64,000 nucleotides of DNA from IMG/VR virus record IMGVR_UViG_3300047476_001337, positions 10,296 to 74,295 of that record; one strand, 5' to 3'. The DNA comes from a virus. Lineage: Duplodnaviria; Heunggongvirae; Uroviricota; Caudoviricetes. The position numbers were made by a program, and so were the translations under genes. The notes beneath the pieces were generated by a model. That model was given only the letters and a program-made list of their open reading frames with translations, searched no databases and was not told the origin of the DNA. Positions within the stretch are counted from its first letter, which is position 1. Every line of letters starts with the position of its first letter. Positions 2,538 to 49,868 of the stretch are shown piece by piece.

Positions 2538-3089
2538 TTATTTATTTTTTACTATTTCAATTAATTTTTTAAGACTAGCAAGTTCTGATTCTTCGTAATC
2601 TACGGGCTCGTCCATTACCATTTCTAAGCTGTTTCCTGTAATAAGATTTTCGATGCAGGCAAGAAATTTTCCTCCAGCTCCAATTCTGTGAATGTCGGGG
2701 TATAATCCATACTTCTCTCTAAACCATCTAAATGCTTGTGAATATGTTGGTGCGGTAATACAGTCCGAATTAAATACACTAATTATATTGGAATTATTAC
2801 ATGCCTTAGACGACCACTTCTTATAAGTGTCAGGAGCAATTTGTAATTCTTTGTTTTCTGCATACCATGCAATACAAGGTTCGTCAAATCCAAGTTGTTT
2901 TAACGCTAAAGCAAGTTCGTAGGGTATAAACTCTTTTTGCACTGCCGTTTGTTCTTTATTGGGTTTTTGCTGTTTTGACTTAAGCAATTCAACTACTTCA
3001 ATCATGTCTTTGGGTTCTAATTCATCCATCATACTGATGATTACCTTTTTGTCGTGTATTGGTGAGTTCTTAAATTTATCGTTGCTCAT
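2538..3089 (-). CDS. hypothetical protein (183 aa)
   Basis: Long ORF with no recognisable motif. Confidence 0.6.
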   Translation of the reverse strand: MSNDKFKNSPIHDKKVIISMMDELEPKDMIEVVELLKSKQQKPNKEQTAVQKEFIPYELALALKQLGFDEPCIAWYAENKELQIAPDTYKKWSSKACNNSNIISVFNSDCITAPTYSQAFRWFREKYGLYPDIHRIGAGGKFLACIENLITGNSLEMVMDEPVDYEESELASLKKLIEIVKNK

Positions 3090-3272
3090 TTGTTACCTCC
3101 GTATAATATTTTTGAAATTATAAAAGCCAATACAACTATTACCGTATTTTCAAACCCAGAAGACCAATTAACAATACCAATAATTGCAATCCAATAAAAA
3201 AACAAGAAAAAACTTTTTATTTCTTTTTTTATAAATTCTAATATGTCTTTTTTCATTTGTTACCTCCGTAGG

Positions 3273-3509
3273 TTAGTGTAAAAAAGTTACATTTCCCGTT
3301 ATTGTTCTTGTTTCTTTTGTTTTTGGGTTTTGTAGTAATGCAGAACAATCTAAACCTATAAAAATAATTTGGTATGTCACCATTTTTGAAAATGGTAAAT
3401 ACCAAAACAAAAAACTTCTTTTTTCTTTAATTTGGATTAAATCACCAAATTTATACCATACACCTTCGTGTTCAATATGTGGTGTCATTTGTTCTTTATT
3501 GTTTTCCAT
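3273..3509 (-). CDS. hypothetical protein (79 aa). I moved the start to the ATG that follows the -7 box.
   Basis: The track ORF 3273..3581 reads through the promoter cassette (which translates as ...YLCGME...). TATCTTTG at 3514..3521 abuts the ATG at 3509. Confidence 0.5.
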   Translation of the reverse strand: MENNKEQMTPHIEHEGVWYKFGDLIQIKEKRSFLFWYLPFSKMVTYQIIFIGLDCSALLQNPKTKETRTITGNVTFLH

Positions 3510-3539
3510 ACCACAAAGATACAAAGAATATTTGAAATA

Positions 3540-3580
3540 AAAAAGGGGGTAGGGGGATTCGGGAACCGTTTCCGGCATCA
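3540..3580 (-). terminator. conserved intergenic hairpin/terminator cassette (copy 1 of 3) followed by a promoter
   Basis: Minus-sense TGATGCCGG...CCCCTACCCCCTTTTTTATTT directly after the stop of 3587..3895; near-identical flanks recur at 9422..9461 and 9980..10020 on the plus strand. Confidence 0.5.
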
Positions 3581-3586
3581 TTCAAT

Positions 3587-3895
3587 TCATGAACATTGCT
3601 TGTTATAAATCTTAACAAGTTGTTTCCCAAATAAATCAACAAGGAAATGATAAAGGCCATCGCTATGTTTCCCTAATGGTATGCCATAATCCTCAACATA
3701 TCTATAGGCGAGCAAATCACAGGCTTCAGAAACAAAATCACCAGCAGAATTAAACTCACAAGGAATCAACTCATCTTCAACAAGGCTCTTCATATCATCT
3801 TCCATTCTATCAAAGTCCAACCTCCTACGAGAGGTGGTGGATAGTTGTTCCATCAATGCGGTTCTATACTGTGATTCGGTGATAACGTATTTCAT
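3587..3895 (-). CDS. hypothetical protein carrying the N-terminal leader MKYVITESQY
   Basis: I placed the start at the ATG giving MKYVITESQ. This leader motif is shared with 12503..12865, 33141..33425 and 56326..57459. Confidence 0.5.
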   Translation of the reverse strand: MKYVITESQYRTALMEQLSTTSRRRLDFDRMEDDMKSLVEDELIPCEFNSAGDFVSEACDLLAYRYVEDYGIPLGKHSDGLYHFLVDLFGKQLVKIYNKQCS

Positions 3896-3919
3896 ACAAT
3901 CATAAATACCCCCACACAC

Positions 3920-4216
3920 TTATTTAATTTCGAGGTCAATAACTTTATTATTCATTTTTTCCCAATGTGATACAACCTTTGTTCTAATCAAATACTTTAT
4001 AATGGGAATTATCTCATTAAGCTTTTTGCAATAATCTGGTGATACCCAATAAAAATCATACGTCAGAATAAACCATTCAGATACATCACGAGTCATCCTA
4101 TTCAAATACCCTTCCACATGTTGTGAAACAAGATAATATGGATGGTCTATTAACTTTTGGGTTATGTAATCATCTATCTGAACAGCTCTTCTTTTTATAT
4201 ACGGTGGGATAATCAT
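3920..4216 (-). CDS. hypothetical protein
   Basis: Track ORF 3920..4306, trimmed to an internal Met to avoid an 89-nt overlap with 4218..4607; the start is uncertain. Confidence 0.4.
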   Translation of the reverse strand: MIIPPYIKRRAVQIDDYITQKLIDHPYYLVSQHVEGYLNRMTRDVSEWFILTYDFYWVSPDYCKKLNEIIPIIKYLIRTKVVSHWEKMNNKVIDLEIK

Positions 4217-4217
4217 A

Positions 4218-4607
4218 TTAATCACGTAATGGAGATGGAATAATTCTAAATTTCTTATATGAATGGTTAATTTCCAACCAAAGTCCAAAATACTTAACGG
4301 TATCAAAACTGTTCTTCAAACCCAAGGTCCTTTCAAGACCATGAAAAATATCGTCCTTAACCAAAAATATTTGCTGGGGAACCATTACCGCACCAACAAG
4401 CGTATTATCATCCCTCATTAAATAAATGTGGTCATTATCAATACCTGCCAAATAAAGGGTGTATTTACCAAATCTCTTGGTTATATAATGTAACGATATT
4501 TCCATTAACTTATCCAAATGAATAACCCTATCTCCACCTAACTTATGTCTTTCTATATAAACCAAAGCATCCCCCAATGTGACTGGACCATTTTTATTTT
4601 TTTTCAT
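4218..4607 (-). CDS. small-paralogue family member F (129 aa) with an internal LGGDRVIHL motif
   Basis: Shares the [KR]x[KR]MGGDxGIHL motif with five tandem ORFs downstream. Confidence 0.5.
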   Translation of the reverse strand: MKKNKNGPVTLGDALVYIERHKLGGDRVIHLDKLMEISLHYITKRFGKYTLYLAGIDNDHIYLMRDDNTLVGAVMVPQQIFLVKDDIFHGLERTLGLKNSFDTVKYFGLWLEINHSYKKFRIIPSPLRD

Positions 4608-4608
4608 A

Positions 4609-4785
4609 TTACAATTTATCGTCCTCTTTAATTATAGGGTCTTTTTTTAAGAACTCCAAATGAATCCCCTTGTCTTCCCCCATTCTAGCTCTTGATATTA
4701 CAAGTTCTAGTTTTTTCTTATATTCTTCAGTATAATCATACTGGCCAAAAGTATAATATTCAGTTTCCATTTTTTCAGTTTCCAT
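4609..4785 (-). CDS. small-paralogue family member A (59 aa; METEKMETEYY...RARMGEDKGIHLEFLKK...)
   Basis: Hand-translated; it falls below the 60-aa track cutoff. Conserved MGEDKGIHL motif; the reading frame was checked. Confidence 0.45.
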   Translation of the reverse strand: METEKMETEYYTFGQYDYTEEYKKKLELVISRARMGEDKGIHLEFLKKDPIIKEDDKL

Positions 4786-4945
4786 TTTCTATATCGATGT
4801 CCAAGTTTATTTGGGGGGTGTTTTTTAAGAATCCCAAATGAATACCTTTGTCTTCCCCCATAATAGCTCTTGACATTATAAAGGTAAGTTCTTCCAAAAA
4901 CTCGTCATCAGGTTTATAATCATTCAAAGTATATTCAGTACCCAT
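4775..4945 (-). CDS. small-paralogue family member B (57 aa; MGTEYTLNDYKPDDEF...AIMGEDKGIHLGFLKN...)
   Basis: Hand-translated; conserved motif. Its start lies 10 nt downstream of the palindrome AATTTTCCAGAAAATT. Confidence 0.45.
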   Translation of the reverse strand: MGTEYTLNDYKPDDEFLEELTFIMSRAIMGEDKGIHLGFLKNTPQINLDIDIENGN

Positions 4946-4954
4946 TTTTTCAAA

Positions 4955-4970
4955 AATTTTCCAGAAAATT
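4955..4970. promoter_or_regulatory. imperfect palindrome AATTTTC-CA-GAAAATT, copy 1, just upstream of a start codon
   Basis: The same 16-mer with a shared A-rich flank recurs at 6477..6492 upstream of the HNH endonuclease gene. Confidence 0.4.
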
Positions 4971-4975
4971 CTTTT

Positions 4976-5113
4976 TTACAATTTGACCCCTTCTTGAATT
5001 AGGGGGTCTTGTTCTGGGGAAACAACTAAATGAATCCCCTTATCTCCACCCATCTTATCTCTTAAAATTGATGTACGTATTTTTTCAATAGCTTCATCAT
5101 GTAGATTCCTCAT
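4976..5113 (-). CDS. small-paralogue family member C (45 aa; MRNLHDEAIEKIRTSILRDKMGGDKGIHLVV...)
   Basis: Hand-translated; conserved motif. Confidence 0.4.
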   Translation of the reverse strand: MRNLHDEAIEKIRTSILRDKMGGDKGIHLVVSPEQDPLIQEGVKL

Positions 5114-5331
5114 TTCGTTGAGGATTGTTTCAAAGTCCATTTCCCCCATAATAATATCTTCTTATCCTTTAACTTGTATTCCAAATGAATTCCTTCATCT
5201 CCTCCCATCTTTTTTCTTTCACGGAGATTCTCCATAGCTTCCATGATTTCTAAAATAGGATAAGATTCATGGGTGACAATATTGTATGCCCCAAACATAC
5301 CATTGTTTATTATCATATCTTTAGTTTCCAT
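5110..5331 (-). CDS. small-paralogue family member D (73 aa; ...RERKKMGGDEGIHLEYKLKDKK...)
   Basis: Track ORF; conserved motif. Confidence 0.5.
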   Translation of the reverse strand: METKDMIINNGMFGAYNIVTHESYPILEIMEAMENLRERKKMGGDEGIHLEYKLKDKKILLWGKWTLKQSSTK

Positions 5332-5500
5332 CTTCAGTATTTTTAACTATTGAATGAATACCCTTGTCTCCCCCCATCTTAAATCTAATTCGTCCAGTAT
5401 ACAGGTCATCATATATTTGAATATCTGATTCACCAAACATATTAATATCAAAGTCACCAAACATATGATAATCTACAAAAACTTGATTATTAGGTTCCAT
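5321..5500 (-). CDS. small-paralogue family member E (60 aa; MEPNNQVF...RFKMGGDKGIHSIVKN...)
   Basis: I moved the start to the ATG that follows the -7 box TACCTTTG (5504..5511). Confidence 0.5.
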   Translation of the reverse strand: MEPNNQVFVDYHMFGDFDINMFGESDIQIYDDLYTGRIRFKMGGDKGIHSIVKNTEDGN

Positions 5501-5520
5501 CTCACAAAGGTACAACAAAA

Positions 5521-5544
5521 AACCCACACTACCAAATGTGGGGG
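5521..5544. terminator. bidirectional intrinsic terminator hairpin CCCACA...TGTGGG flanked by an A-run and a T-run
   Basis: 6-bp perfect stem between the HNH gene and paralogue E. Confidence 0.5.
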
Positions 5545-5625
5545 TCTTTTTTACCGTTCAGGAATATTGACAATAATATACCCCCCATTTATAACCTATA
5601 TTCCCGTTCAGGAATATGTGGGTCT

Positions 5626-6438
5626 TTAAGAGTGGGGGGTTCTCTCAAGAAACTTACCAAATCTAACCACCAATTCATCAGGTATTTTATCCGATAGTAT
5701 TTTGTTGTTTTTAGATTGATTCTCACTTGCCCACAAAGGTTGATAATTTGTATGATGACAAAGTTCAATTACTTCATCTTCATTAACCCCCAATGAAACA
5801 GGAACAATGTGGTCCAAATGCCATGCACCATAATTATCCCAAGACATTCCATCAATAAATTGTTTTTCAATGTATTCTTTGAATTCATAAAAATTACATC
5901 CCAATATATCAATGGTTTTACTTTTCTTTCTCATGCTTACTACATCGACTCTCTTGATGTAGTTTTTAATTAATACCCTAACTCTACAGGTTAATTTGAA
6001 TAAAGGGTCATTATTACTTCGTTCTTGTTTTTGTCTATATTCATTTTTTCTATTTTCATCAGACTTCCTAAATTTACGACTGTTTTTTGTCTGACAGTTT
6101 CTACAGTAGTAATTCAACCCCATAGGTCTATTTTTAGACTTATTGAAGTTTGTTTCATTAGAGTCCAACCATAAGTTACAACGAGAACATTTTTTTTGGT
6201 TTGTTTTCAAATTGTATGTCTCATAACACTTATGACATAATGATTCATTTTTACAAGAAATATCCAACTTACCTTTTGATTGAGTAATGGTGTGACCACA
6301 GAATCTACAAGATTTTGTAAATTGATGTCTTGGATATTTTGTATTATTATCAGGATAATATCCCTCGTATTTTGTTACAATAAATGAACCACATGTTTTA
6401 CCAATATACTGTTTGATGATTTCTCCACGTTGTTTCAT
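5626..6438 (-). mobile_element. HNH homing endonuclease with multiple CxxC zinc-finger pairs (271 aa from the ATG; the track used a TTG at 6447)
   Basis: C-terminal HNH signature AWHLDHIVPVS...NYQPLWASENQSKNNK and many CxxC pairs; flanked on both sides by G/C-run hairpin-rich sequence. Confidence 0.8.
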
Positions 6439-6476
6439 TTTAACCAATATAGTAAAGGGACCTCATTTTTCCAAAA

Positions 6477-6492
6477 AATTTTCCAGAAAATT
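6477..6492. promoter_or_regulatory. imperfect palindrome AATTTTCCAGAAAATT, copy 2, upstream of the HNH gene start
   Basis: Identical 16-mer to 4955..4970. Confidence 0.4.
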
Positions 6493-6606
6493 TCATCGTT
6501 AGTATTGTACCCCCTTTTCGACCTGTCAAAGTGTCATATAGGGGGGGATACGGGAGGGGGGACCCCCACCATGGGGGGTATGCCATACTGCCCCCCGAGG
6601 GTATAG

Positions 6607-6687
6607 TGTGGATAACTTTATTCCCCCTCCCCCTATGACACCATGTCATGTGGATAACTTATGGTCCCCCTCATATGGTGTGTATAA
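6607..6687. promoter_or_regulatory. DnaA-box-like cluster I: TGTGGATAA at 6607..6615 and 6649..6657, plus a one-mismatch TGTGTATAA at 6679..6687
   Basis: Perfect matches to the bacterial DnaA-box consensus TTATCCACA/TGTGGATAA. They lie next to G7/G6/C6 homopolymer runs (6541..6600) that are atypical for this AT-rich sequence. Confidence 0.45.
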
Positions 6688-6715
6688 CTATATGACATTA
6701 ATTTGACGTGGGGGT

Positions 6716-7252
6716 TTGGTAGTGTCAAATAGATTACCTATCTTTGTATTATGGTTCAGTCATATACTAACCATGGGCGTGGGGGCTTATGTGGTCACGG
6801 GAGAGTATACTCCGACCTGCCTTATATTTTTTTATAAGGGGTTTGGAAATGTCAAAGGTATGTTGTACCTTTGTAGTGTTATGAAGTTGATTGATTCCCC
6901 CACTCATATTAAAAGACTTAACAAGGTCATGAGGAGTAAGCTCATTGACTGTGATGTTAAATCCTTTTACTATGAATCCCTTAAGGGTTACTACTCATTA
7001 CATGTTAAGAGGGGGAATAACTATACACCCCCATCATTGTATCTTAAGTTTAATGTCACTGAGTGTCTATATAAAAACCATTATTGGGATAATAAATTAT
7101 TATCCATGTATAGTGGAAATCAAAGAATCAGGAATATTAACATATCCATTAGATATCCTATTACCGTGGAAGGTTGTCATATGTTCCTTAAACACTTTGG
7201 TATTAAGCACTATGAACTTAACAAGACTATGATTGTTTGGCCCACTCGTTAA
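6716..7252 (+). CDS. doubtful plus-strand ORF (TTG start) inside the DnaA-box-flanked segment
   Basis: Only support is ORF length. A plus-strand TATCTTTG box at 6739..6746 abuts an out-of-frame ATG at 6751, giving a 28-aa ORF. Confidence 0.2.
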   Translation: MVVSNRLPIFVLWFSHILTMGVGAYVVTGEYTPTCLIFFYKGFGNVKGMLYLCSVMKLIDSPTHIKRLNKVMRSKLIDCDVKSFYYESLKGYYSLHVKRGNNYTPPSLYLKFNVTECLYKNHYWDNKLLSMYSGNQRIRNINISIRYPITVEGCHMFLKHFGIKHYELNKTMIVWPTR

Positions 7253-7640
7253 TGGTCTCATACGCCATTGTCGATAGTGTCACCCTTGTAATGTTGAAAT
7301 CCCCCTCGTTAAGATGAAAGTACTTGTGGAGTATCTCATGTAGTGGCTTAAGGTCACAGTCCACCATCATCCATACGTTCTGACTTAGGGGTTTCCTACT
7401 GAACCCTGTCTTACCCTTATGGAACCATATGATTGCCTCAGGTAATACATTCCCCCTGTTTGGGACATATCTTAGTATTATCCCATTGGATGACTCCTCT
7501 ATCTTGGGGGTAAAGTATTTCAGTACAATTAAACGTATGTTATCGTCCGTTAGTTTGGATGGTCCATATACATCACCTCCCATTAATTGAATCTCACTCA
7601 TATTGTTGATAAATATAATGTTATCCACACTTTTGTCCAT
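7227..7640 (-). CDS. hypothetical protein (137 aa)
   Basis: ORF; a DnaA-box 9-mer (7621..7629) lies inside its first codons. Confidence 0.45.
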   Translation of the reverse strand: MDKSVDNIIFINNMSEIQLMGGDVYGPSKLTDDNIRLIVLKYFTPKIEESSNGIILRYVPNRGNVLPEAIIWFHKGKTGFSRKPLSQNVWMMVDCDLKPLHEILHKYFHLNEGDFNITRVTLSTMAYETINEWAKQS

Positions 7641-7686
7641 ACTGACACCCTGTCATGTGGATAAAAAAAATTGGGATTGTGGATAA
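7621..7686. promoter_or_regulatory. DnaA-box-like cluster II: TTATCCACA at 7621..7629, TGTGGATAA at 7656..7664 and 7678..7686
   Basis: Three perfect 9-mers within 66 bp in both orientations. The 22-bp direct repeat TGACACCNTGTCATGTGGATAA occurs at 6636..6657 and 7643..7664. Confidence 0.45.
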
Positions 7687-8306
7687 CTTTGGGGGTAAAA
7701 ATTTGGAATTGTCAAAATGTCAGGTCCCTCTTTCGCATGGGGATAATGCCTTTACGGGGTTTTCATTTCCCCCACTATCTCCCACAGGGATATAATTGTA
7801 TAGTAGAATTCCCCCTGACGCTATCAGGAGAACCAATTTTATCCCCCTCACAGTAGCAAGAAGACCACTTTTTTTACTATATATAAAACCCAGAGAATAA
7901 TAGTTGTTATGAGTGCCTAGTCGGGTGGACACGTAGTGTCTTAGAATATTCCTTCAAGGAGGACGAAGTCTATTACTAAGATGACCCCTAATATAGACCA
8001 ATATATTCCTGTCCCCTTAGTTTATATGGATATTACATGATGTTAAATATATGTGGGAGAAAGTGGGAGTTATAGTTTATATCTAATTAGTCAGGTGAAA
8101 CCTGACCATTGTGATATACATAATAATAACTCCGTAATCTCCCCCACAATCTATGTCTACTCTATATGTCTCTACATATAATCTTTCATGTTCCTTAATG
8201 ATTATATCTGATTACATATAATATCAGACAACTATATAACATCTCACTGTATCCATCTCCTTTAGTGGGGGACAAACTACAAGTGGGGGTTCTTGTGGTG
8301 GGGGAA

Positions 8307-8798
8307 TTAGTTTTCCGTAATGGCCGTTACGGTAATCGGTGTTACCATAGGTTCTAAGAAATTACATAAGTCATTTACGTAATTAACATACTCAGGGTCC
8401 TTTAGACTACCATCTATAAGTTCTATCCTCTTAGGGTCTTCTAAGTACCATTGTGCAAGTTTGAGTGACTTAACTGTAGTATCATATACATCACCAAACT
8501 CATGGTCATCATTGTACCATCCTGTTTGAGTTTTATACTTAGTAAACTCTATAGAGAAGTTTAGATTTGAACCATCATTATAATGTTCAGGTATATAATG
8601 AATATACACACCATTATCCTCTAATGTCTTAAGGGAACTTAATACAAGGTTATCATATATCTCAGCCATTATCTCTCTTGTAAGATGTCCTGCAGTCTTG
8701 GTATTGTCATTTGCCCATCTTATAATAATGTCTTCTACCTTGGAGTATAATTCTTTGTACATAGTGTTAATAATAATGAATTCCCCCCACATAATCAA
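8307..8798 (-). CDS. hypothetical protein (163 aa)
   Basis: Long ORF followed downstream by a 666-bp ORF-free hairpin-rich stretch (7641..8306). Confidence 0.55.
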   Translation of the reverse strand: MIMWGEFIIINTMYKELYSKVEDIIIRWANDNTKTAGHLTREIMAEIYDNLVLSSLKTLEDNGVYIHYIPEHYNDGSNLNFSIEFTKYKTQTGWYNDDHEFGDVYDTTVKSLKLAQWYLEDPKRIELIDGSLKDPEYVNYVNDLCNFLEPMVTPITVTAITEN

Positions 8799-8987
8799 TA
8801 TAAGGTTGTGGACTTATAATGGACTATTATTAGGCTGTAGACTTATAGTGATACGATATGATACGGAAATATCCGATGGTGATACTATAAACAGAATAAA
8901 GTAAAAGTATGAACGAATGTGTGGAGTGATAACGACACACCCTGAGTGAATAGTTTTACTTTATGATGTGTAGTAATATTTACTATT

Positions 8988-9416
8988 ATGTCTAATCCTG
9001 ATTTATTTGAATATATCCCGAAATTTATACTATCTAATTATGACATGAATGTGGATGTACGAATTAAAAACGCTCCTAATAATAATAAAACTTTCATTTA
9101 TACATGGATTATTTTTACACCAAAAAAGATTAATTCTTTAACACCTCATGAGACAAACTTTTTTGCTAAGTACGATTGGATTCATCCTAAGGATGGAAAA
9201 GAAGAACTTTCTTACGATGATGCAATTTATATTAGAAAAGATGATATGCCGATTATAAAATATGTTGCAGGCGAATATTACTTAGATGAATTCTGTGAAA
9301 AGATGGCTAAAGACTTAACATTACAAACCATTGAGAAAATCAAATCAGGTGAAGAACTTCCGAAAATACCATTAGGTGATTTAGTTTACTTTAACTACGG
9401 TAAAAATAACTTTTGA
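8988..9416 (+). CDS. hypothetical protein (142 aa)
   Basis: First gene of a three-gene plus-strand island; followed by conserved terminator cassette copy 2. Confidence 0.6.
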   Translation: MSNPDLFEYIPKFILSNYDMNVDVRIKNAPNNNKTFIYTWIIFTPKKINSLTPHETNFFAKYDWIHPKDGKEELSYDDAIYIRKDDMPIIKYVAGEYYLDEFCEKMAKDLTLQTIEKIKSGEELPKIPLGDLVYFNYGKNNF

Positions 9417-9421
9417 TTAGG

Positions 9422-9461
9422 TCTCTGATGCCGGGGACTGATTATCCCCTACCCCCTTTTT
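9422..9461 (+). terminator. conserved hairpin/terminator cassette (copy 2), GCCGGGGACTGATTATCCCCTACCCCC followed by a T-run
   Basis: Lies directly after a stop codon, with a GGGG/CCCC stem and TTTTTT; copies at 9980..10020 and, in minus orientation, 3540..3580. Confidence 0.55.
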
Positions 9462-9480
9462 TATTTGAAATATTATCATT

Positions 9481-9488
9481 ACCTTTGT
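9481..9488 (+). promoter_or_regulatory. -7 promoter box TACCTTTG 4 nt upstream of the ATG at 9493
   Basis: Plus-strand TACCTTTGTGGAATGG, the same cassette architecture as the minus-strand genes. Confidence 0.5.
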
Positions 9489-9492
9489 GGAA

Positions 9493-9974
9493 TGGAATTG
9501 TCTAATTTATCATTTGAGGAACTTATTGAGTTAAGAAGTAAGATTAACGATATGATTTATTCATATGAAGATGGATATCTCTATATCTGTAATGTTCGTT
9601 CTTATGGTAGGAATTGGACTGAGAGGGTTAAAAATACTCTTGAGTTGGAAGAGTTATGTAATAAATACGATGGTCAAGATGGTATTGTGGATGTTTATTC
9701 TACCAACCCTAATTTAGATTTTATGCATAACTACGGTGCTTTGATGTATATTGAATCACAAGAAGATTATGCTAATTGGAATGGGTATAACAAATTAAAC
9801 AGTCTTATACCCCAAATTAAGGAGGAATTGGATGAATGGGATAATAGAAATAATGTTCCGTTTAATCAACGTCCATTATTTGAACCAACTTATACTCGTG
9901 GAGATTTGGCAAACTATGAACTTCAGTTGGCTGTGTATGACATGTCTTTCGTACCACCGAAACCATATCATTAA
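9493..9974 (+). CDS. hypothetical protein (160 aa). I moved the start to the ATG that follows the -7 box.
   Basis: The track ORF 9465.. begins with the translated promoter cassette (...YLCGME...). Confidence 0.6.
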
Positions 9975-9979
9975 ACATA

Positions 9980-10020
9980 TCTCTGATGCCGGGGACTGAT
10001 TAACCCCAACCCCTTTTATT
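9980..10020 (+). terminator. conserved hairpin/terminator cassette (copy 3)
   Basis: TCTCTGATGCCGGGGACTGATTAACCCCAACCCCTTTTATT directly after the stop codon. Confidence 0.55.
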
Positions 10021-10032
10021 ATATTTATTGTT

Positions 10033-10338
10033 ATGGAAGTATCTGAAAAAATGATTAAGAAAGTATTAGAACACTTGGTTTCACCTAAGTGGAATGGTAT
10101 TGTGGAATATAATATTGAACCTTCTACACACGATGATACAGGTGTTGTGTACTACATGATAGATGTTATATTTGATATTAATAAGTATTGGTCAATATAT
10201 CACGCAGGTAAATATGATTATCCAGTAGAAATGGATATAGAGATTGAAACTGATGTTAGAAACGCGATGAAGTATTTGGGTATTAACACAACATTTGTAA
10301 CAATGTATGTTAGGGATGAAGATGGAATTTGGAAATAA
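10033..10338 (+). CDS. hypothetical protein (101 aa)
   Basis: Third gene of the plus-strand island. Confidence 0.55.
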   Translation: MEVSEKMIKKVLEHLVSPKWNGIVEYNIEPSTHDDTGVVYYMIDVIFDINKYWSIYHAGKYDYPVEMDIEIETDVRNAMKYLGINTTFVTMYVRDEDGIWK

Positions 10339-10353
10339 TTAATAGAATTACCA

Positions 10354-10692
10354 TTATGGACAAACATATTGATGCATAAGACGTAATTTCTCACCGTATT
10401 TGTCTCTAGCATATTTCTCCATCATCTTATACGCTTCCCCCCACTCAGGTGAACTATTACTAACATCACTAAAGTAATCCCAATAGATTGTATCTAATGT
10501 TTTGGATATTGTTGCATCAATAAAATCATCCTCATCAATTTCACACATAGAATATTGGTGATTGACTTCATCTGCAGATACAAAGATTAACTCATCAACA
10601 TTACGTATTCTTCTTTGTGCGGCAACCAAAAGATTGGCCTCATTTAATCCCATCATCTCTTGTATTCTATTTACCTGCTCTTGTAAGTTCAT
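10354..10692 (-). CDS. hypothetical protein (112 aa)
   Basis: ORF whose stop overlaps the start of the upstream gene by 4 nt. Confidence 0.5.
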   Translation of the reverse strand: MNLQEQVNRIQEMMGLNEANLLVAAQRRIRNVDELIFVSADEVNHQYSMCEIDEDDFIDATISKTLDTIYWDYFSDVSNSSPEWGEAYKMMEKYARDKYGEKLRLMHQYVCP

Positions 10693-48864: not shown

Positions 48865-49868
48865 ATCAATTTATCATAAGGTTTTCCATCCCACATGGCA
48901 AACATCACCGCTCTATAAGGTGGATGTCCATGTTCCAATACATGTTGAGCGAACTCTTTCTTAGTTGGTTCAACTTCTCTATCACCATACTTTCCGTAAC
49001 GGAAATAGTCATGAGCCTTTCCACAATGTTCAGACACTTGGTAATAACCATATTTCAATCTCTCAGCATATTCCTTTACCTTAGCATAGAACTCATCAGG
49101 TACATCCTTCAAGAACTCATTGATGTCACCACCATTAGCCAAGAACTCCCATACACCAGTGGTTGAAACATTTGTCATTATCTTATGAAGACGCAAATAT
49201 TCCTCACCCTTGATTTTCATTCGGTTTCCATTAGAGAAACGAACAACAAACCCTTCAGCGTTCTGTTCAACTTTATCCTTCAATTCGGAATAATCCCGAA
49301 TTCCATCGTATTTTTTGACAACATCAAACCCTTCAAACAATTCATTGTATGGAAGTTCTTCACCAGTATCAGTGTTGATTATACCAAGCAATACCAAACG
49401 CTCCTCACCGTTGTAGTCAACCACGATTCTATTCTCAGGATAGATTATCTCAAACAAATAAGTGTACCCTTCAACGATAATGTCTTGGTAGTTGTACTTC
49501 ATAGCAAAGTCGGTCATCCACTTTGATTGGTCTGAAGTAAATGAACCACGAGTGGCACATATCATCGCACCATTGTACTTGAACATGATTCCCAAAGAAC
49601 CATCCATCTTTTCAAAGACCTCAAAGTCAGATGTTGGTACGTGTTTGTTCTCCTCTATGTTGAAGAACTTTTTGAATGGTCGGGCAATTACATTACCTCT
49701 GTTATCAGTAACCAATCCACGACATGACAATGTAACATCGTCCCACAAGTCACCGTACTGAACGTTCGGTGTGTAGTTCCATATGGATAATGGCAAACTA
49801 CGGTGTGTCTGTTTGAACAACAAACCCCTTTTTGTGTAGTCATCTAATATGGCCATTGGGAATTTCAT
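48828..49868 (-). CDS. RNA ligase, T4 Rnl1-like (tRNA repair ligase)
   Basis: SCRGLVTDNRGNVIARPFKKFFNIEEN...FEVFEKMDGSLGIMF aligns with T4 Rnl1 [31 protein letters not shown]...YILTKEDGSLVSTY (motif I KxDGS); 346 aa. Confidence 0.7.
   Translation of the reverse strand: MKFPMAILDDYTKRGLLFKQTHRSLPLSIWNYTPNVQYGDLWDDVTLSCRGLVTDNRGNVIARPFKKFFNIEENKHVPTSDFEVFEKMDGSLGIMFKYNGAMICATRGSFTSDQSKWMTDFAMKYNYQDIIVEGYTYLFEIIYPENRIVVDYNGEERLVLLGIINTDTGEELPYNELFEGFDVVKKYDGIRDYSELKDKVEQNAEGFVVRFSNGNRMKIKGEEYLRLHKIMTNVSTTGVWEFLANGGDINEFLKDVPDEFYAKVKEYAERLKYGYYQVSEHCGKAHDYFRYGKYGDREVEPTKKEFAQHVLEHGHPPYRAVMFAMWDGKPYDKLIWNIIKPEWKKL

Follow-up and report, generated by a model that had tools for sequence, protein, structure and literature searches.

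How a phage comes to carry a row of six small, diversified genes that repeat one short string of residues, and whether that string is kept as protein or as DNA, is the question raised by a locus in a 64,000-nucleotide (nt) stretch of a Caudoviricetes virus (positions 10,296 to 74,295 of IMG/VR record IMGVR_UViG_3300047476_001337), referred to here as the window. Six consecutive minus-strand open reading frames (ORFs) of 56-129 amino acids (aa), numbered from ORF6, the first gene, to ORF1, occupy positions 4218-5500 of the window, and each contains one copy of a 12-residue motif, R-x-[KR]-(M/L)-G-(G/E)-D-x-(G/V)-I-H-(L/S). Taken as a whole, the array is best explained as a lineage-specific tandem family of mini-domain proteins that recombine at the motif and have an early role in host interaction, a reading to which we assign a probability of roughly 60%. 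The part of this reading that concerns the anatomy of the array and the mechanism of its evolution is very likely to be right, and the part that concerns function is put forward tentatively.

A first-pass annotation of this DNA had described a tandem array of six diversified small paralogous genes, and all the motif strings it quoted proved to be correct. A six-frame regular-expression scan of the 64 kb agreed with it, finding the motif at these six sites only and each time in the frame of its own ORF. At the DNA level the copies form a single six-copy family, with units of ~41 nt that are 61-76% identical to the reference copy and are spaced by 142-192 nt. The ORFs are spread over all three minus-strand frames and overlap or abut, except for a 30-nt gap between ORF4 and ORF3 (Table 1). 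The stop of ORF6 and the start of ORF5 overlap in ATGGAAACTAA, those of ORF3 and ORF2 overlap in ATGGAAACTGA, and ORF5 has an unusually long tail that extends 40 nt into ORF4. Details of the earlier description had to be corrected. The ORF sizes, given as 45-129 aa, are 56-129 aa (53 aa at the lower end if ORF2 starts at its second ATG), and the N- and C-terminal extensions, which had been called unrelated, can be aligned over the whole length of the five small proteins. These show 20-50% identity to ORF2; a start of the form ME(T/P) is common to them, as are an amphipathic helix that precedes the motif and tails of related type. The only part unrelated to the other copies is the C-terminal domain of ORF1, unique and of 99 aa, to which the motif, here within the N-terminal 30 aa, is fused; searches with this domain retrieved only near-identical copies and no relatives outside clusters of at least 90% identity. 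In alignments the ORF1 gene is precisely missing from two related metagenome contigs (L013 and L011), a presence/absence polymorphism. The isoelectric point is 4.1-4.9 in four of the five small proteins, 8.0 in ORF5 and 9.3 in ORF1, and in 96% of 141 family members the N-terminal part carries a net negative charge. Metagenome proteins identical to ORF6 (P0135), ORF5 (P0004) and ORF4 (P0029), as well as near variants of ORF2 (P0006 and P0012), were also found.

Table 1. Positions in the window of the array genes and of the features that surround them.
Feature	Position	Strand	Description	Motif (M..H)
ORF6	5321-5500	-	59 aa, first gene of the array; MEPNNQVF...RIRFKMGGDKGIHSIVKNTEDGN	5354-5377
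ORF5	5110-5331	-	73 aa; METKDMIINN...RERKKMGGDEGIHLEYKLKDKK...	5185-5208
ORF4	4976-5149	-	57 aa; MGEMDFETIL...ILRDKMGGDKGIHLVVSPEQDPLIQEGVKL	5030-5053
ORF3	4775-4945	-	56 aa; MGTEYTLNDYKPDDEFLEELTFIMSRAIMGEDKGIHLGFLKNTPQINLDIDIENGN	4838-4861
ORF2	4609-4785	-	58 aa (53 aa from the second ATG, 4770); tail LEFLKKDPIIKEDDKL	4660-4683
ORF1	4218-4607	-	129 aa; most divergent motif form, RHKLGGDRVIHL	4518-4541
Head cassette	5501-5542	-	Terminator-like hairpin CCCACA-N8-TGTGGG and T-run (5523-5542), interleaved with a promoter match	
Palindromic element	4952-4970	-	19 nt, AATTTTCTGGAAAATTTTT; in the ORF4-ORF3 gap	
HNH-type endonuclease gene, free-standing	5626-6447	-	Directly upstream of the array; phrog_1035, E=1.6e-20	
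Exact DnaA boxes	6607-6615, 6649-6657, 7621-7629, 7656-7664, 7678-7686			
One-mismatch DnaA boxes	6679, 7604, 7738			

The conservation of the motif was followed in 29 sequences, namely the window and 28 related metagenome contigs. The first-pass annotation had held that a motif lying in a different frame in related phages would reveal a DNA-level repeat; in these sequences all 97 motif copies are in the frame of an open ORF and on one strand. Variation within the motif is concentrated at the third positions of the Gly, Asp, Leu and Arg codons, a codon-position periodicity, and an invariant Arg is written as AGA, AGG or CGT. Among 50 diverse members of the family this Arg, three residues before Met, and the His are invariant, and M, G, D, G and I are at least 90% conserved. 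The ratio of non-synonymous to synonymous polymorphism (pN/pS) is 0.13-0.72 in six of seven groups of N-terminal modules (N-modules) and 0.44 for full-length ORF1, which makes it lower than 1 in seven of eight comparisons, each based on 3-6 sequences. The array is thus a coding paralogue family under purifying selection at the protein level.

The earlier view that selection acts on the protein and that the motif is not a DNA repeat is supported by the frame, by the codon wobble and by pN/pS, but the either-or that it sets up is wrong, since the choice of codons reveals an effect at the DNA level as well. When one representative was taken for each of 17 unalignable N-module classes, less than 40% identical to one another, Lys -1 was AAG in 9 of 9 cases (27% in the genome, p 8e-6), Gly +1 was GGG in 10 of 16 (8%, p 5e-8), Gly +2 was GGA in 13 of 15 (28%, p 4e-6), Ile +6 was ATT in 15 of 15 (58%, p 3e-4) and His +7 was CAT in 17 of 17 (55%, p 4e-5). 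At codon +4 the third base is G in 13 of the 17 representatives while the amino acid varies among K, E, R and Q. The synonymous codons of the motif are far from genome usage and the motif DNA must therefore also be homogenised or constrained: it is more uniform than the protein needs, either by recurrent homogenisation through recombination or by an added constraint on the nucleotides.

Comparison with relatives showed how the array changes. Among sequences ~96% identical in the flanks, the number of genes is 3 in L007 and L008, 5 in L003, 6 in the window and in L001, and 7 in L002, so that arrays range from 3 to at least 7 genes across the related metagenome contigs. In a set of 230 unique proteins the N-modules fall into at least 27 classes and the tails into about 10-16, and 12 N-modules occur with two or more tail classes. 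P0070, for instance, consists of the N-terminus of ORF1 and the tail of ORF3, P0010 joins the N-terminus of ORF2 to the tail of ORF4, and the N-module of ORF5 is attached to at least six other tails in relatives. Breakpoints were read from the blocks in which a contig aligned to the window, and the stretch of the query shared by two blocks was compared with the position of the motif. In L007, positions 10000-10202 correspond to window 5549-5344 and 10163-10401 to window 5062-4821, with 10163-10202 shared and the motif starting at 10172; in L013, 3655-4012 correspond to window 5549-5183 and 3977-4216 to 5063-4821, with 3977-4012 shared and a motif start at 3987; in L010, 2579-2811 correspond to window 5412-5183 and 2776-2897 to 5063-4942, with 2776-2811 shared and a motif start at 2786. 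All three mapped crossovers thus fall within the motif. A second joint is the start/stop overlap ATGGAAACT(A/G)A, present at ORF6/ORF5 and at ORF3/ORF2, and a third is the head cassette, which is kept before at least six different first-gene N-modules in relatives. The alignments show an array that grows, shrinks and is reshuffled through homologous recombination at short stretches of conserved sequence.

Crossovers occur at three such stretches: the motif DNA (~27-40 nt), the overlap of start and stop in ATGGAAAC, and the head cassette. They give rise to new combinations of N-module and tail and to the different array lengths of close relatives. The same exchanges, or the added nucleotide constraint, keep the motif DNA nearly identical between paralogues that are otherwise unalignable. 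In four relatives that are more distant (L011:5776, L014:1580, L020:425 and L025:1340) an extra, more divergent member, ...RERMGGDRGVHFGHIKRVTKLLEDRFVI, lies ~300-600 nt past the main array; it has an TATCTTTG-N4-ATG start of its own and is preceded by a palindrome-like element, which suggests that a unit of the family may be seeded together with its promoter. The motif could even be dual-purpose, serving both as the invariant functional core of the proteins and as a recombination joint that is selected for and conserved at the nucleotide level. In concert with the ATGGAAAC junction and the head cassette, it would then form a combinatorial cassette system that operates without a reverse transcriptase or a site-specific recombinase and that double-strand breaks made by the adjacent endonucleases might stimulate; we regard this extension as rather improbable. 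If true, it would represent a built-in mechanism to diversify a repertoire of early host-targeting proteins.

The codon bias, with its invariant ATT and CAT and the third-base G of codon +4 despite the change of amino acid, is also what would be expected if the conserved 27-40 nt were primarily a DNA or RNA element, such as a recombination site, an operator or iteron-like repeats by the DnaA boxes, with the ORFs incidental or secondary. The mapped crossovers within the motif and the cluster of exact DnaA boxes ~1 kb from the array would fit this explanation. We nevertheless consider it unlikely, because an element of this kind does not account for a motif that is in frame, in intact ORFs and on one strand in 97 of 97 copies, for an Arg at -3 that is invariant in spite of its three codons, for the variable third positions of Gly, Asp and Leu, or for a pN/pS mostly below 1. 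Moreover, the helix periodicity of the amino acids runs on upstream of the motif, where the DNA can no longer be aligned. The spacing of 142-192 nt is unlike that of iterons, and a search of Rfam over 3000-10000 gave nothing significant. The distance from the motif to the next start varies from 23 to ~300 nt; the motif is therefore not a promoter or ribosome-binding site at fixed distance, and its reading as such a signal for the next gene was rejected.

The coding paralogue family would be expressed from the head cassette. Its promoter match consists of TTTG at 5533-5536, followed after 20 nt by TACCTTTG at 5505-5512 and, after 4 nt more, by the ATG of ORF6 at 5500. TAnnTTTG stands exactly 4 nt before the ATG of seven other long genes of the window, and the form TA(T/C)(A/C)TTTG was noted 4 nt before the ATG of at least eight genes, including those with minus-strand starts at 49868, 46570, 34363, 13157, 1296 and 472. 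Sequences resembling Shine-Dalgarno sites are not enriched upstream of the genes (7 of 70, against a background of 9%). The TAnnTTTG box, which we take to be the -7 element of Bacteroidota promoters, and the lack of Shine-Dalgarno enrichment point to a Bacteroidota host and to leaderless early transcripts; with the promoter match 4 nt before the first ATG, the packed and overlapping genes would be transcribed early and leaderless by the RNA polymerase of the host. The palindromic element in the ORF4-ORF3 gap may be an operator and is a candidate on sequence grounds: AATTTTCTGGAAAATTTTT has two exact copies in the 64 kb, the second at 6474-6492 upstream of the HNH gene, against 0.33 matches expected at up to 3 mismatches. 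In relatives that lack the HNH gene, it is placed before the array head. Another hairpin, GACCCC...GGGGTC at 4985-5008, lies in the tail class VVSPEQDPLIQEGVKL; it is confined to this one class and was therefore rejected as a feature of the family.

This context bears on a further alternative. In T4-like phages the internal-protein locus encodes small variable proteins with a short N-terminal signal that is cut by the prohead protease, and the locus is polymorphic between relatives; at least one of these proteins, IPI* of T4, is an anti-restriction protein. The array products could likewise be packaged in the virion and ejected, with the motif as a capsid-targeting signal or a cleavage signal for a prohead protease and the variable parts as anti-restriction effectors, since they are small, variable and mostly acidic, have a short motif as their sole common part and come from a locus that is plastic between relatives. 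However, the motif starts at residue 20-45 of the proteins, in a central or C-terminal position, and not at the N-terminus as the T4 capsid-targeting sequence does. The promoter match is of host type and the neighbouring genes are of nucleotide-metabolism or early type (thymidylate synthase, nicotinamide phosphoribosyltransferase, RNA ligases). A PHROGs scan of 34 window ORFs recognised no structural gene, and no protease gene was identified. The packaging of these proteins is, in our judgement, very doubtful.

It is still less probable that the array is a recently amplified segment whose copies are drifting and whose members are mostly functionless. ORF5 lacks a normal stop and runs into ORF4, one module has a pN/pS of 2.0, and frameshifted copies exist in metagenomes, as would be expected of decaying duplicates; yet N-modules less than 40% identical retain their ORFs, start codons and motif in all 29 sequences, pN/pS is well below 1 for most modules and the module classes, at least 27 of them, persist over many samples. 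The frameshifts, seen in the metagenome proteins P0103, P0157 and P0163 (related to ORF6 and to other modules), coincide exactly with the G-run in the motif, ATGGGGGGAGAC, and change the reading to ...MGEIRVFI... or ...MGGGTRVFI...; they may reflect errors of sequencing, or a slippage at the homopolymer by which copies are switched off.

In the protein family that we favour, the unit is a mini-domain composed of a variable N-terminus, an amphipathic alpha-helix that ends in the invariant Arg, the turn/strand motif R-x-[KR]-M-G-[GE]-D-x-G-I-H-[LS] and a short tail. Structure prediction, which the first-pass annotation had proposed as a check, was informative for part of the array: AlphaFold2 modelled ORF4 as a single helix (residues 6-32) that ends at the invariant Arg and is followed by the motif and tail as coil, with a mean predicted local distance difference test (pLDDT) score of 72, but the model of ORF1 was too poor to use (pLDDT 43). 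A helical N-terminal part that ends in ...[KR]-M-G-G, in several tandem small genes, recalls double-glycine-leader precursor peptides that would be cut after M-G-G to release D-x-G-I-H-L and the tail, an explanation that we dismiss because 15 of 72 unique copies have Glu in place of the second Gly (Asp or Lys at times replaces the first) and the conservation is reversed, with a hypervariable 'leader' and a conserved 'core' that is not rich in Cys, Ser or Thr, next to immediate neighbours among which the scan found no peptidase, transporter or modifying enzyme. Readings of the motif as GGDEF-like, GIY-YIG-like or ubiquitin-tail-like were also rejected: in each case no more than 3-5 letters agree, within a 55-aa protein whose spacing or fold size does not fit.

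Database searches indicated how far the family extends. A profile built from the six copies, another check named at the outset, retrieved 135 proteins among 5.8 billion, all of them unnamed and from metagenome or run assemblies. An exhaustive HMMER search of 1.84 billion representative proteins gave 32 clusters at E <=0.001. Pfam, PHROGs and PADLOC returned zero significant matches for the six array proteins (best PHROG E-value 0.036), a Pfam scan of 50 family members gave nothing, and neither did a profile search of the PDB sequences, even at E up to 10. Megablast of the 5 kb around the array (3000-8000) matched no deposited phage, tblastn of one family member against deposited phage genomes produced a chance match alone (E=0.4), and scans of IMG/VR and GTDB genomes showed no relatives of the family. 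We conclude that this family of small proteins is real, previously undescribed and restricted to one lineage.

As had been stated from the outset, the array adjoins an HNH endonuclease gene, which was recognised by its PHROG, while the Pfam scan of 5626-6447 was silent. The product contains ...HLDHIVPVS...HHTNYQPLWASENQSKNNK, and the gene is a discrete, mobile insertion of ~820 nt that is missing from the otherwise collinear L002 (83-93), where window 6459 is joined to 5638. In L007 (8985-10004) its place is taken by another endonuclease of that family, 339 aa long, with 39% identity over the 131 C-terminal residues that align. An HNH or endonuclease VII-like catalytic region and presence/absence polymorphism at a fixed site are the features of a free-standing homing endonuclease, and the gene is predicted to be one. 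Since it is absent in L002 and replaced by a divergent member in L007, this interval, which separates the DnaA-box region from the array head, is a hotspot for the insertion of free-standing endonucleases. The DnaA-box consensus, TTATCCACA, has five exact sites in the 64 kb, and all of them are found in two clusters that span 1.1 kb (6600-7750) just upstream of the HNH gene and the array. The cluster at 6450-6700 is apparently non-coding, with G-runs and C-runs, is ~80% conserved in L007, L010, L011 and L013, and is a candidate replication origin or DnaA-binding region. Between the two DnaA-box clusters there is an ORF of 178 aa on the plus strand (6716-7252) with a TTG start, which gave no family match and for which L007 has a gene call on the matching strand (8044-8445).

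The rest of the window belongs to a large, uncultured, AT-rich phage. Its G+C content is 29-37%, nearly all long ORFs are on the minus strand, and its recognisable genes, of phage-type auxiliary and nucleotide-metabolism function, include those for nicotinamide phosphoribosyltransferase, ribose-phosphate pyrophosphokinase, thymidylate synthase, two RNA ligases, a tRNA nucleotidyltransferase, a DNA methyltransferase and homing endonucleases; a tRNA search of the window found none. A protein of 1521 aa gave weak matches only, to two uncultured-phage records of ~640 kb and to one short bacteriophage record.

With regard to function, the first-pass annotation had named anti-defence, superinfection exclusion and host takeover as typical of such arrays, roles for which the acidity of the proteins and the early-type promoter match would be indirect hints. 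It is possible that the host or a defence system is the early target of the array proteins, although we hold this with low confidence. The invariant Arg, Asp and His of the motif would be the site through which all members make contact or oligomerise, with specificity set by the variable, acidic N-termini. Early transcription together with binding of a host or defence target is the most doubtful part of the explanation, as it is suggested by analogy with proteins that are small, acidic, early and hypervariable. Several other observations weigh against the explanation that we prefer. The expression of the array was read from the sequence, its promoter and terminator are matches to a consensus, and a Bacteroidota host was deduced from promoter style alone. 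One N-module group has the pN/pS of 2.0 already mentioned, and three to six sequences underlie each of these values. Part of the conservation of the motif is not owed to the protein, given its biased synonymous codons. The model of ORF4 is a lone helix in which the motif reaches a pLDDT of just 50-70, and Foldseek found no match for it in the PDB. Finally, searches of Pfam, PHROGs, PADLOC and the PDB revealed no homologue whose function is known.

If these proteins are early host-interaction factors, the array and its relatives would offer a natural library of more than 27 variable helices mounted on one invariant 12-residue motif, with three invariant or nearly invariant polar residues (Arg, Asp and His) to mutate, and thus a tractable entry to a phage-host interface, probably that of Bacteroidota. 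If their function is trivial, they would be one more lineage-restricted family of small ORFs. The array is in addition a clean case of a short coding motif that serves as a crossover point for array expansion, contraction and domain swapping, with a conservation that can be measured at both the protein and the nucleotide level, and it is relevant to the question of how novelty arises in the hypervariable "ORFan" regions of large phages.

Several known systems resemble the array in part. Ocr and ArdA are small, strongly acidic, early-expressed anti-restriction or DNA-mimic proteins of phages. The array proteins are comparable in size and, in four of the five small paralogues, in their low isoelectric point, acidity alone being weak evidence, but differ in that no similarity of sequence or fold to these proteins was detectable with Pfam, PHROGs, PADLOC, PDB or Foldseek searches. 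With the T4 internal proteins the likeness lies in small variable products that have only a short sequence in common and in a polymorphic locus, and the difference lies in the place of the motif and in a context that is not structural. In the gp38 adhesins of T2/T6-type phages, conserved Gly-rich motifs separate interchangeable hypervariable segments (Trojet et al., 2011, PMC3157838), and the conserved motifs are thought to form a structural core and the variable parts to set the specificity (PMC3157838). The array similarly has short, conserved, Gly-rich coding motifs between interchangeable variable parts. However, gp38 carries all its motifs in one virion adhesin, whereas here each motif belongs to a separate gene of 56-129 aa in an operon of early type; there is no sequence similarity to gp38, no PHROG or Pfam match to a tail protein or adhesin, and no tail-fibre context. 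In its dynamics the array resembles the hyperplastic regions of T4-type phages, in which recombination between promoter-terminator cassettes (PeSL, promoter-early stem-loop) shuffles small non-essential ORFs (Arbiol et al., 2010, PMC2839356; Comeau et al., 2014, PMC4122927). As in those regions, small ORFs differ between close relatives by insertion, deletion and replacement through recombination at short conserved sequences. The head of the array, judged by its sequence, would combine a terminator-like hairpin with an early-type promoter, and this cassette is kept before different first genes. In contrast to PeSL regions, where many intergenic copies are the crossover sites, each array has one head cassette and the mapped crossovers are in the coding motif; the promoter match is of the Bacteroidota -33/-7 kind with a leaderless start and not of the sigma-70 kind; the main joint encodes a conserved protein motif; and the genes that are shuffled are paralogues and not unrelated ORFans.

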